A stretch of 64,000 bases of DNA from an uncultured Alphaproteobacteria bacterium (GTDB taxonomy: Bacteria; Pseudomonadota; Alphaproteobacteria; Rhizobiales; Beijerinckiaceae): contig CAVVTP010000011.1 in the NCBI GenBank assembly GCA_963751165.1, positions 164,995 through 228,994 on the forward strand. Reading direction: 5' to 3'. A program made the position numbers and the translations under genes. A model generated the notes under the pieces. It made no database searches and had not been told where the DNA came from. It saw only the letters and a program-made list of their open reading frames with translations. How positions within the stretch are numbered: the first letter of the stretch is position 1; each line of letters opens with the position of its first letter. This document shows, in pieces, positions 59,831 through 62,800 of the stretch.

Positions 59831-62800
59831 TCACTCCGCCGCGCTCTGCCGCGCCTTTGCGCCCTTCCTCGCGAGCACCGGCTTGAGATAGGCTCCGGTG
59901 TAGCTCTTCGGGTTGCGAGCGATCTGCTCGGGCGTTCCGGCCGCCACGACCTCGCCGCCGGCGTCGCCGCCCTCGGGCCCCATGTCGACGATCCAGTCGG
60001 CCGTCTTCACGACTTCCAGGTTGTGCTCGATCACGATCATCGTGTTGCCCTGGTCGACCAGCTCATGCAGCACCTCGAGCAATTGCGCGACGTCGTCGAA
60101 GTGCAGGCCGGTGGTCGGCTCGTCGAGGATGTAAAGGGTGCGGCCGGTCGATCGGCGCGACAGCTCCTTCGCCAGCTTCACCCTCTGCGCTTCGCCGCCG
60201 GAGAGCGTGGTCGCCTGCTGGCCGACTTTCACATAGCCCAGGCCGACGCGCTTCAGAGTCTCCATCTTGTCGCGAATTGAAGGCACCGCCTTGAACAGGT
60301 CGGCCGCCTCCTCGACCGTCATGTCGAGCACGTCGGCGATCGACTTGCCTTTGTAGCGCACCTCCAGCGTCTCGCGGTCGTAGCGCTTGCCCTTGCAGAC
60401 GTCGCAGGTGACGTAGACGTCAGGCAAGAAGTGCATCTCGATCTTGATCAGGCCGTCGCCCTGGCAGGCCTCGCAGCGGCCGCCCTTGACGTTGAACGAG
60501 AAGCGGCCCGGCCGGTAGCCGCGCGCCTTGGCCTCCGGCAGGCCGGCGAACCAGTCGCGGATGGGGGTGAAGGCGCCGGTGTAGGTGGCGGGGTTCGAGC
60601 GCGGCGTGCGGCCGATCGGCGACTGGTCGATGTCGATCACCTTGTCGAGCTCGGCAGGCCCTCGATCCGCTCGTGCGGCGCCGGCGCGTCGGAGGCGTTG
60701 TTCAGCCGCCGCGCCGCGGCCTTGTAGAGCGTCTCGATGGTGAAGGTCGATTTGCCGCCGCCGGAGACGCCGGTGATGCAGGTGAAGAGGCCCGACCGGG
60801 ATCTCGCCGGTGACGTTCTTCAGGTTGTTGCCGCGGGCGCCGACGATTTGCAGCTTGCGCTCCGGCGTCGGCGCGCGGCGCCGCGCCGGGATCGGCGACC
60901 TCCCGCGCGCCCGACAGGTACTGGCCGGTCAGCGACTTCGGGTTGGCCATGATGTCGGCGGGCTTGCCCTCGGCGACGATCTGCGCCGCCGTGCACGCCG
61001 GCGCCGGGGCCCATGTCGATCACGTAGTCGGCCGGTCAGGATCGCCTCCTCGTCGTGCTCGACCACCAGCACCGAGTTGCCGAGGTCGCGCAGGCCCTTC
61101 AGCGTGTCGAGCAGGCGCGCGTTGTCGCGCTGGTGCAGGCCGATCGACGGCTCGTCGAGCACGTAGAGCACGCCGGTCAGGCCCGAGCCGATCTGGCTGG
61201 CCAGCCGGATGCGCTGGCTCTCGCCGCCCGACAGCGTGCCGGACGCGCGCGACAGGTTCAGATACTCGAGCCCGACGTCGAGCAGGAACCGCAGGCGGTC
61301 GTTGATCTCCTTCAGGATGCGGCGGGCGATCTCGATCTGCTTGGCGTCGAGCTTTTGCGGCAGGTTCTCGAACCAGTCGCGCGCCGCCTGGACCGACAGC
61401 AGGCTGACCTCGGCGATGTGCTGGCCGTCGATCTTCACCGCCAGCGCCTCGGGCTTCAGGCGGAAGCCGCCGCAGGCGTCGCAGGGCGTCGCGCTCAGGT
61501 AGCGCTCGAGCTCTTCGCGCACCCACTGCTATCGGTCTCGCGCCAGCGCCGCTCGAGATTGGAGACCACGCCCTCGAAGGTCTTGTTGACCTCGTACTTG
61601 CGGGCGTTGTCGTCGTAGACGAAGTGGATCTTCTCGTCGCCCGAGCCGTAGAGGATCACCTGACGCGTCGCCTCCGGCAGCTTCCACCACGGCTCGTCCA
61701 TCGAGAAGCCGTAGTGCCGGCCAGCGCCTGCAGGGTCTGGGTATAGGGCGAGCCGACTTGGCCCAGGGCGCGATCGCGCCCTTGTGCAGGGTCCTTTCTG
61801 GTCGGGCACGACCAGCGTCGGCGTCGAACTTCAGCTTCATGCCGAGGCCGTCGCAGACCGGGCAGGCGCCGGGCGGGTTGTTGAACGAGAACAGCCGCGG
61901 CTCGATCTCGGCGATGGTGAAGCCCGACACCGGGCAGGCGAACTTCTCGGAGAACAGCATGCGCCTCGGCCCGTCCCTCGCCCTCCGCGCGTGGGGGAGA
62001 GGGCGGGGTGAGGGGCAGGCCACGCTGGCAGGACCGCCAAGCCCCTCACCCTCGCTTCGCTCGACCTCTCCCCGCGGGCGGGAGAGGTGGGCGCGGCGGG
62101 CGCGTCCGCCCACTCGGCCACCGCGATGCCGTCGGCCAGCGCAGCGCCTGCTCCAGGCTGTCGGCCAGCCGGGCCGCCATGTCGGGCCGCACGACGATGC
62201 GGTCGACCACCACGTCGATGTCGTGCTTGAAGTTCTTCTCCAGCGCCGGCGCGTCCTCGATCGGGTAGAAGTCGCCGTCGATCTTCAGCCGCTGGAAGCC
62301 GCGCGCTGCCAGTCGGCGATCTCCTTGCGGTACTCGCCCTTGCGGCCGCGCACCACCGGCGCGAGCAGGTAGAGCCGCGTGCCCTCGGGCAGGGCGATGA
62401 TCTTGTCGACCATCTGGCTGACGGTCTGGCTCTCGATCGGCAGGCCGGTGGCCGGCGAATAGGGCACGCCGACCCGCGCCCAGAGCAGGCGCATGTAGTC
62501 GTGGATCTCGGTCACCGTGCCGACGGTGGAGCGCGGGTTGCGGCGGTGGTCTTCTGCTCGATGGAGATCGCCGGCGACAGGCCCTCGATCAGGTCGACGT
62601 CCGGCTTCTCCATCAGCTCCAGGAACTGGCGGGCGTAGGCCGACAGGACTCTCGACGTAGCGCCGCTGGCCCTCGGCGTAGATGGTGTCGAACGCCAGGG
62701 ACGACTTGCCCGAGCCGGACAGGCCGGTCAGCACCACCAGCTCGTCGCGCGGGATGTCGACGCTGACGTCCTTCAGATTGTGCTCGCGCGCGCCGCGGAT

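Follow-up and report, generated by a model that had tools for sequence, protein, structure and literature searches.

Why should a palindromic repeat lie within uvrA, and why should further copies of it lie within imuB and dnaE2? The question is raised by a 64,000-nt stretch of DNA from an uncultured alphaproteobacterium (contig CAVVTP010000011.1); the whole stretch is called the window below, and coordinates refer to it unless another locus is named. An earlier note, made from the sequence alone, had described a hairpin element in uvrA, assigned it to one family with copies in imuB and dnaE2, and pointed out that all three hosts are DNA-damage genes. These observations were borne out. The element lies where it had been placed, in a 137-nt insert with two perfect inverted repeats; the repeat word GGGGTGAGGGG, allowing at most one mismatch, occurs five times in the window against 1.47 expected, a count that none of 100 shuffles reached; the copies in the three genes share their modules; and uvrA, imuB, and dnaE2 are all damage-response genes. 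By its sequence, the uvrA element is an inverted pair of BoxC-like units. Our preferred explanation, to which we assign a probability of roughly 0.7, is that it is a tolerated, in-frame, selfish or neutral repeat at a permissive site of the UvrA protein.

Most of the evidence comes from related genomes, whose uvrA genes the earlier note had suggested comparing. We sought the closest UvrA proteins in a collection of 5.8 billion proteins and fetched the DNA of six from ENA, NCBI, and JGI assemblies. The closest proteins are ~83% identical and 1014–1018 aa long, one of them is named Roseiarcus sp., and they carry an insert at the same position. The insert stands at the identical codon and in frame, within intact open reading frames (ORFs) of 1001–1018 aa, in all six independent assemblies of these Roseiarcus-like relatives. 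That of the window is orthologous to the insert of locus L081, which is 123 nt (41 aa) long and in frame. Length variants stay in frame as well, since the L207 insert lacks 45 nt and that of L205 is 12 nt shorter. Judged from these orthologs, the uvrA insert is old and vertically inherited throughout a group of soil bacteria, and not a recent hit. An exact-protein look-up gave no match for the window Ssb or for the 269-aa C-terminal ORF of UvrA.

Across the seven orthologous copies the stems, including the arms of the central hairpin, are invariant, while every hairpin loop is different; in L207, one arm of the central hairpin is lost. The invariant stems include the rare A/T-ending codons TCT, GGA, CGA, GGT, and CCT, in a genome whose GC content at third codon positions (GC3) is ~0.85, and the third-position identity of uvrA as a whole is 0.76. 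The encoded peptide, ...PAPHPxPLPAxGER, is kept in five of the six intact orthologs, with a variant 5′ half in L082 and a truncated version in L207. The L081 element is a near-perfect palindrome of ~105 nt with a predicted DNA fold of −58.2 kcal/mol (z = −10.3; all folding was computed with Watson–Crick pairs only), whereas the orthologous window copy is degenerate (z = −2.3 and −3.0). Rfam, at its gathering threshold, reported no RNA family at the uvrA element. Members of a sister lineage (P0083 and P0099/L208) have an unrelated repeat at exactly the same UvrA site (aa ~263–295), which encodes GEIANSEIAS...HPPLATRHS and is built from units of the GCGAATAGC/CCACTCGCC type.

The site itself appears to be forgiving. 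Caulobacteraceae and most other alphaproteobacteria have 6–9 residues there and no insert. Among ~65 alphaproteobacterial loci with an extractable uvrA ORF (80 were fetched), five of the six UvrA insertions of at least 15 aa map to this loop, which is the main length-variable loop, or hot spot of large indels, of alphaproteobacterial UvrA. Aligned to the Bacillus stearothermophilus UvrA structure 2r6f, a 44-aa insert takes the place of residues 257–260, between two blocks that align end to end; we take this region to be the C-terminal boundary of the UvrB-binding domain. An AlphaFold2 model of P0001 has residues 266–305 as coil with a predicted local distance difference test score (pLDDT) of 25–27, and the mean pLDDT of the whole model is 61, so we used the model as weak support alone. 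A flexible Zn-finger region links the UvrB-binding domain to the rest of UvrA (PMC12796330). The structural alignment, the sequences, and the model together suggest that the insert occupies a flexible surface loop at the hinge of the UvrB-binding domain. The earlier idea that long flexible loops are tolerated in these proteins is thus strongly supported, by this UvrA indel hot spot, by variable DnaE2 peptides, and by REPs of other families in dnaE2 (both described below). Two further genomes, an uncultured bin (L059) and a Novosphingobium (L079), carry inserts of 18 + 27 and 39 aa at the same loop; the predicted folds of their DNA are unusually stable (−39 to −52 kcal/mol per 100 nt), and they may therefore be palindromic repeats of yet other families.

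Coordinates of the element, of its host genes, and of the other copies in the window are collected in Table 1. Transcribed divergently from ssb, uvrA begins with an ATG at 62892–62890 and has its stop at 59831. Its coding sequence reads ...GIAVAEWAD up to 62104 and restarts toward CPVCDGLG at 61966. Besides the two hairpins of the insert, there is an alternative third pairing, of 61994–62005 with 62062–62073, the G arm of the outer hairpin. The third-frame peptide RAEGEG, considered as a native loop, was ruled out by the ortholog alignment, in which this stretch corresponds to a decayed 3′ hairpin. No consistent target-site duplication was found at the uvrA insert; by eye, ACGCGC stands on both sides of it in the window alone and is not kept in the orthologs.

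Table 1. Positions of the repeat copies, their host genes, and the promoter-region boxes in the window
Feature	Coordinates	Strand	Basis or description
uvrA (excinuclease ABC subunit A)	59831..62892	-	ORF fragments; three-frame translation; ~83% aa identity to 1014–1018-aa UvrA; indel list versus L081/L082
ssb	63169..63666		Pfam SSB
Repeat-derived insert in uvrA, 137 nt	61967..62103	-	Between the Asp codon of ...AEWAD (62106–62104) and Arg-Arg-Met-Leu-Phe (from 61966)
Central hairpin	62006..62051	.	Arms 62006–62016 GGGTGAGGGGC / 62041–62051 GCCCCTCACCC; 11 nt perfect, loop 24 nt
Outer hairpin	62064..62088	.	Arms 62064–62072 ACCTCTCCC / 62080–62088 GGGAGAGGT; 9 nt perfect, loop 7 nt
BoxC/TMECO-like unit CCCTCGCCC-N11-GGGAGAGGG-CG-GGGTGAGGG	61975..62014	+	C-stem, G-stem, and putative third strand; matches relaxed TMECO pattern
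Composite copy, dnaE2 site 2, between polymerase core and HhH/OB domains	17539..17650	-	ORF frame change in the window
Composite copy, dnaE2 site 1, inside PHP region	19607..19742	-	Read in frame
Copy between DUF559 gene and dnaE2 start	20146..20184	.	
Copy between imuB stop and DUF559 start	20584..20648	.	
In-frame repeat array in imuB, downstream of IMS_C	20942..21130	-	150 nt longer than in L083
Partial copy (loop module only) in 3′ part of putative imuA ORF	22443..22469	.	
GTTC-N7-GTTC	23183..23197	+	Directly upstream of imuA start (23164)
GTTC-N7-GTTC	62962..62976	-	uvrA–ssb divergent promoter region

What family does the repeat belong to? Holder et al. (2015; PMC4666352) gave the motif known as BoxC, PIT (potential intrastrand triplex), or TMECO as 5′-CCCTCNCCC-N3-6-GGGNGAGGG-N3-GGGNGAGGG and counted 3610 copies across 262 proteobacterial genomes. 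The E. coli copies include CCCTCTCCCTGTGGGAGAGGGCCGGGGTGAGGGC and form five closely spaced inverted pairs, and all 23 copies in strain K-12 are intergenic (PMC4666352). The motif formed a triplex in vitro and is associated with strain-to-strain rearrangement (PMC4666352). The window modules CCCTC(T/G)CCC, GGGAGAGGG, and GGGTGAGGG are the same three 9-nt blocks, matching CCCTCNCCC, GGGNGAGGG, and GGGNGAGGG in the same order. On the plus strand of the uvrA copy they stand at 61975–61983, 61995–62003, and 62006–62014, the first as CCCTCGCCC, the "mismatch" variant that is commonest in E. coli. The spacing departs from the published rule: the loops of the window copy are 11 and 2 nt instead of 3–6 and 3 nt, loop 1 is 8–11 nt in most uvrA copies, and the strict TMECO expression had no match within the window. 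That strict pattern does fit the uvrA copy of L082 (10087–10122 of that locus) and the dnaE2 copy of L209 (8655–8690), and a relaxed form fits the copies of the window, L081, L205, and L207. The 120 metagenome loci described below, each with a central hairpin, contain 38 strict and 69 relaxed-pattern units, and 78 of 83 units found there with a broader pattern lie at most 150 nt from a central hairpin.

Other properties of the family point the same way. Hairpins of CCTCTCCC/GGGAGAGG stand on either side of the central arms GGGTGAGGGGC/GCCCCTCACCC, which is the inverted-pair arrangement, and like BoxC/PIT the repeat is GC-rich, multi-copy, mostly intergenic, and without an associated transposase; its carrier loci likewise vary among strains, as in the case of imuB (see below). 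No RAYT was seen in the window. The uvrA element is likened to TMECO by its sequence blocks; the TMECO triplex was seen in vitro, and the one here is putative. On paper, the base-triad rules of a purine-motif triplex would be satisfied. There is also a second module type, CCCTTCTCCC...GGGAGAAGG...GGATGAGGG (17539–17590 and 19691–19740), which appears to follow the same mirror rule for a purine third strand, although these modules, with their loop-2 hairpin, fall outside the published pattern. Unlike the BoxC copies of E. coli K-12, the uvrA copy lies within an ORF and is read in frame in the relatives.

The seven sites counted in the window, in agreement with the earlier note, are that in uvrA and those at 17.5, 19.6, 20.15, 20.6, 21.0, and 22.44 kb. 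All fall in two loci, uvrA and imuA–imuB–DUF559–dnaE2, and isolated 9-mer matches elsewhere are chance matches in coding sequence. Three intragenic copies had been proposed, which is too low: with dnaE2 containing two, and imuB and uvrA one each, the number is at least four out of seven, and the imuA ORF has a fifth, partial copy in its 3′ part. Pfam recognizes ImuB (IMS and IMS_C), DnaE2 (PHP, polymerase III alpha, and finger domains, with HhH and OB in the downstream ORF), and the DUF559 protein. The DUF559 gene (20213–20572, minus strand), whose product has a Vsr-like endonuclease fold, lies between imuB and dnaE2 with a repeat copy on either side; the gene order is kept in two relatives, with DUF559 at 5501–6004 of L209 and 5396–5750 of L210.

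These other copies resemble that of uvrA in age and behavior. L209 and L210 likewise have repeats at the imuB site and at each of the two dnaE2 sites, and all DnaE2 orthologs have repeat-derived peptides at both sites, differing in content and ~10–120 aa in length. On this comparison, the inserts in uvrA, imuB, and dnaE2 are all old, orthologous, and vertically inherited, so the window holds two independent loci and not, as "a third DNA-repair gene hit within 45 kb" would imply, three recent events. The imuB array (20960–21135, against 9155–9180 of L083, a contig of the same species) is longer in the window by 150 nt, that is, by 50 codons in frame, which is either a strain polymorphism or the collapse of a tandem hairpin unit. 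At its second site, dnaE2 is split by the repeat into ORFs of 926 and 362 aa (17449–17801). Here L083 lacks two bases that the window has (17641 and 17493, against 12502 and 12649), and removal of exactly one fuses the ORFs, so that dnaE2 is probably intact in the window organism. Many database DnaE2 entries of the clade likewise end at ~860–930 aa; assembly or gene calling may often fail at the site-2 repeat, or the gene may really be split there.

We then have three partial censuses, from a plasmid collection, a metagenome scan, and the flanks of the clade loci, and they put the copy number well beyond the seven window sites. A BLASTN search of the plasmid collection with the L081 element returned 462 places in 182 records, with carriers that include Sinorhizobium, Rhizobium, Azospirillum, Shinella, and Escherichia. 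At 59 of the best 60 of these places the match overlaps no annotated gene, and the remaining one lies in xdhC; ten of the 59 are in records without any annotation, so at most 49 are informative. The metagenome scan, with the pattern GGGTGAGGGG-N10-30-CCCCTCACCC, gave at least 128 copies on at least 120 contigs, and hosts were filtered by ORF, GC3, and Pfam. Long ORFs without a Pfam domain over these copies were antisense shadow frames (GC1 > GC3) and were dropped from the host count. Among the copies listed, the truly internal hosts comprise eight loci in seven families: Mfd/TRCF (between the UvrB-interaction and RID domains), UvrD, peptidase U32, a hydantoinase/oxoprolinase, a DAO–GCV_T dehydrogenase, RsmB/F (two loci), and a GT87 glycosyltransferase. 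Five copies upstream of the first domain, at genes for UreF, cytochrome D1, SoxA/TsdA, a methyltransferase, and QueA, are probably in 5′ leaders, and the remainder (~86% of those listed) are intergenic or abut gene ends. In ~150 kb of sequence flanking uvrA or dnaE2 in the relatives, the extra copies are intergenic and no further gene hosts a cluster.

The repeat family is thus mostly intergenic. The earlier note had proposed a genome-wide census as a check, and to this question the partial censuses give an answer in two parts: the bulk of the copies is intergenic (59 of the best 60 plasmid places and ~86% of the at least 128 metagenome copies), but a true intragenic minority includes Mfd and UvrD. 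Two protein searches were not usable as host censuses. The 46-aa insert peptide had four matches in a search of 1.84 billion representatives, and a profile from 13 element translations found only hypothetical ORFs of 29–74 aa without Pfam domains; both results are consistent with intergenic copies miscalled as tiny genes. A preference for LexA-regulated loci, another of the explanations offered at the outset, fared less evenly. The sequence GTTC-N7-GTTC, which we take to be the LexA-box consensus of alphaproteobacteria, is indeed present at both loci, but a specific preference is not supported. The window has four matches to it against 2.1 expected, so the other two (43676–43690 and 49767–49781) may be chance. 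Pure coincidence, the remaining explanation, is unlikely in view of Mfd and UvrD as hosts and of a published survey of REPs in repair genes (PMC3733652).

In that survey, Di Nocera, De Gregorio, and Rocco (2013; PMC3733652) found that intragenic REPs with GTAG or CGTC tags often lie in replication and repair genes, naming uvrA, uvrB, uvrD, polA, recBCD, dnaE, and dnaE2. Like the copies described here, they are short palindromic repeats, often in dimers or groups, that encode 20–80 aa in intact ORFs, and the DnaE2 REPs of S. wittichii (aa 166–246) and O. terrae (aa 934–971) lie approximately in the two dnaE2 regions occupied in our window (PMC3733652). The present repeat belongs to a different family. 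By inspection of the ortholog alignment there is no GTAG and no consistent GTAG/CGTC terminal tag; the sole GACG flanking the insert is the Asp codon of the host, which is GAT in L204, L206, and L207. Clade-wide orthology and stem conservation at the nucleotide level, both documented here, go beyond the REP report. Rickettsia palindromic elements (RPEs; Ogata et al. 2000, cited in PMC3733652) are also palindromic and lie in frame in protein genes whose products stay functional. They resemble our repeat in this respect and have no sequence relationship to it; RPEs populate many host genes of reduced, AT-rich genomes, whereas the present repeat was seen in few hosts, in the GC-rich genome of a free-living organism. 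Reportedly, RPEs too sit in surface loops. What is already known, then, is that palindromic repeats occur in frame in repair genes (RPEs and intragenic REPs), together with BoxC/PIT, described as intergenic; what is new is the combination of BoxC with in-frame positions in repair genes, the long orthologous retention with conserved stems, and the mapping of the uvrA site to the hinge.

How might this situation have arisen? Under the explanation that we favor, a non-autonomous repeat, widespread among Proteobacteria and found mostly between genes, would have become embedded long ago in the uvrA of an ancestor of the Roseiarcus-like Rhizobiales group. It would have survived because it was in frame, was read in a register that avoids the TGA of GGGTGAGGG, and lay at the most permissive site of the protein, the short connector that ends the mobile UvrB-binding domain just before the CPxxG/Zn hinge. 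The insert would be translated as a disordered loop of ~40 aa, rich in Pro, Gly, Glu, and Arg, that UvrA tolerates; purifying selection on UvrA would hold length changes in frame; and the stems would be kept by selection on DNA or RNA structure or by gene conversion from other copies in the genome. The imuB and dnaE2 copies would be the same phenomenon at similarly permissive linkers, and the clustering in repair genes would mainly reflect tolerance by large, modular, weakly expressed proteins. The broken uvrA frame of the window is, most likely, an assembly artefact and not a consequence of the element.

Several points weigh against this explanation. First, the in-frame status of the window's own uvrA copy is not demonstrable: the insert length is not a multiple of three, the gene around it has ~16 single-base indels, and since these are likely artefactual the frame of the insert cannot be judged from the window. 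Second, translation of the insert and activity of the insert-bearing UvrA are predictions. Third, perfect stems, disfavored codons included, at ~24% synonymous difference are more conservation than a neutral passenger would be expected to have, which hints at function or ongoing conversion. Fourth, every copy in the window lies in one of two loci with a LexA box, and none in the other ~50 kb. Finally, two of the seven validated metagenome host families (Mfd and UvrD) are linked to nucleotide excision repair (NER). The NER and imuABC genes make up an estimated ~0.4% of coding DNA, and two in seven is more than coding length would lead one to expect, for a small sample and a category chosen post hoc; moreover, validation by Pfam favors large, well-known modular proteins.

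The state of uvrA in the window allows a different account, in which the gene would be a real pseudogene, decaying or recombinant, with the repeat as a component of its inactivation or a contributor to it. Relative to L081 and L082, uvrA is split across three frames by ~16 single-base indels, at least one of them inside the insert. These frameshifts are limited to uvrA, with the neighboring ssb, HepT, and MNT genes intact, and the dN/dS of the window gene against L081 (0.30) exceeds that of L081 against L082 (0.11). The latter comparison is uninformative as a test for a pseudogene, because synonymous sites are near saturation under the high GC3. There are no in-frame stops, and no indel outside the insert exceeds four bases (14 are single-base, one is of 3 bases, and one is of 4). 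Where the Roseiarcus-like and Caulobacterales consensuses agree, the window UvrA deviates at two of 666 positions. At 128 diagnostic positions it is Caulobacterales-like in 78, Roseiarcus-like in 41, and neither in nine, with a strong 5′/3′ block pattern: Caulobacterales-type residues lie mainly at 37–650, and Roseiarcus-type residues mainly in the tails and the last ~300 residues. By DNA distance, the gene lies nearly on the line between the two clades, one segment being 81% and 84% identical to them when they are 70% identical to each other. The few private differences, the block hybrid, and the intermediate distances are those of a blended consensus and not of random decay.

The data set is also error-prone. 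Over 13.8 kb, L083, which comes from another sample and is 99.1–99.5% identical to 16331–30289 of the window (the same species), differs from it by 24 single-base indels that break different genes in each assembly. Other long ORFs that we checked were mostly clean (the N-terminal 926 aa of dnaE2, imuB of 585 aa, an AcrB-type protein of 1112 aa, and ssb), with one frameshift each at dnaE2 site 2 and in the gene for a DyP-type peroxidase. From the indel pattern, the hybrid residues without stops, and the intermediate distances, we consider it likely that the window uvrA is an assembly artefact, in which the consensus of a conserved gene was polished with reads of two taxa, and we regard a true pseudogene as unlikely. 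Such polishing would retain the insert, as foreign reads could not span it; the insert is of the Roseiarcus-like type and orthologous to the inserts of that clade.

Could the palindrome instead be a selected, cis-acting structure, such as an mRNA hairpin, a DNA cruciform, or an H-DNA/triplex, that is kept in SOS genes? By acting as a stress-sensitive switch, for example, or by restraining the basal synthesis of UvrA, ImuB, and DnaE2, it might adjust how these genes are expressed, how stable their mRNA is, or how the DNA nearby is replicated and kept stable. We think both the general proposal and this regulatory version of it improbable, though several observations speak for them: stems that are invariant at all codon positions while the loops drift, the very stable fold of the L081 copy, LexA boxes at both host loci, where all seven window sites lie, and Mfd and UvrD among the metagenome hosts alongside the repair-gene bias of other REP families. 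Against them, relatives with an intact uvrA do without the structure, one arm of the central hairpin being gone in L207 and an unrelated repeat standing at the site in L208; in the window the copy has degenerated, and within one species the imuB array differs by 150 nt. Gene conversion from other copies would also account for the stems. According to the summary of earlier work in PMC4666352, BoxC/PIT had no promoter, terminator, or polymerase-blocking effect in vivo.

A broader form of this idea, that BoxC-like palindromes are preferentially retained in damage-response genes (uvrA, uvrD, mfd, imuB, and dnaE2) as functional non-B DNA or RNA, is a speculation to which we give little credence. 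If it were true, the element might be sensitive to replication or transcription stress and tie the expression of repair and mutagenesis genes, or their local instability, to DNA structural stress, or the structure might be a substrate of the NER and translesion synthesis proteins that the host genes encode; a functional structure would also explain both the conserved stems and the bias across unrelated repeat families.

Less plausible still is exaptation of the peptide, by which a Pro/Gly/Glu-rich loop at the hinge would modulate the loading of UvrB by UvrA or the binding of a partner. The insert does stand precisely where the UvrB-binding domain meets the Zn hinge, and its peptide is the one kept in five of the six intact orthologs. 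That conservation, however, is a consequence of the DNA stems, and the codons conserved are not the preferred ones; a low-quality model predicts disorder for the loop; and relatives have half of the peptide or a wholly different one, where most alphaproteobacteria have their 6–9 residues. Finally, that the insert is chance low-complexity sequence or an assembly chimera, as a genome of 65% GC with single 8–9-mers of the motifs at about the expected rate might suggest, is already refuted by the orthologous copies, the same element standing at the same codon in six other assemblies, and it sits badly with the enrichment of the motif over shuffles, the perfect nested inverted repeats, and the 462 plasmid places.

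Read as a tolerated repeat, the uvrA element joins three lines of work: BoxC/PIT motifs, described as intergenic and destabilizing, in-frame repeats of the RPE type, and the 2013 report of REPs in repair genes. It would mean that a second, unrelated repeat family behaves like intragenic REPs, with stems that persist over long evolutionary times, and that there are a few recurrent permissive sites, one in UvrA, at the hinge of its UvrB-binding domain, and two in linkers of DnaE2. These are concrete cases on which the question of tolerance or function behind the repair-gene bias can be put. They also carry a warning for annotators, as such repeats create spurious short ORFs and coincide here with long-read consensus errors that mimic pseudogenes.

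A few observations concern the surroundings of uvrA. Directly downstream lies a toxin–antitoxin pair of a HepT-like RNase and an MNT nucleotidyltransferase (58895–59577, minus strand); L204 has such a pair a few kb downstream of its uvrA, and L081 a lone NTP_transf_2 gene just downstream. Two copies of a direct repeat of 80–95 nt, 84–94% identical and unrelated to the BoxC-like family, lie downstream of uvrA (59646–59740) and upstream of a lipase gene (51476–51556). Between uvrA and an encapsulin operon is a degraded cluster of insertion sequences, with two tandem partial copies of an ISL3-family transposase (56163–58623; 86–90% identical, spacing 882–897 nt) that adjoin a DDE_3 (IS630-like) transposase. 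The operon itself (54182–56077, minus strand) consists of the gene for the DyP-type peroxidase, broken by its one frameshift, followed by that for the encapsulin (Linocin_M18) shell; the C-terminal piece of the peroxidase (54984–55313) ends in a targeting peptide of the SLGIGSLKG type. Farther away, a cobalamin riboswitch (Rfam RF00174, 107.6 bits) lies at 40753–40944 on the plus strand.

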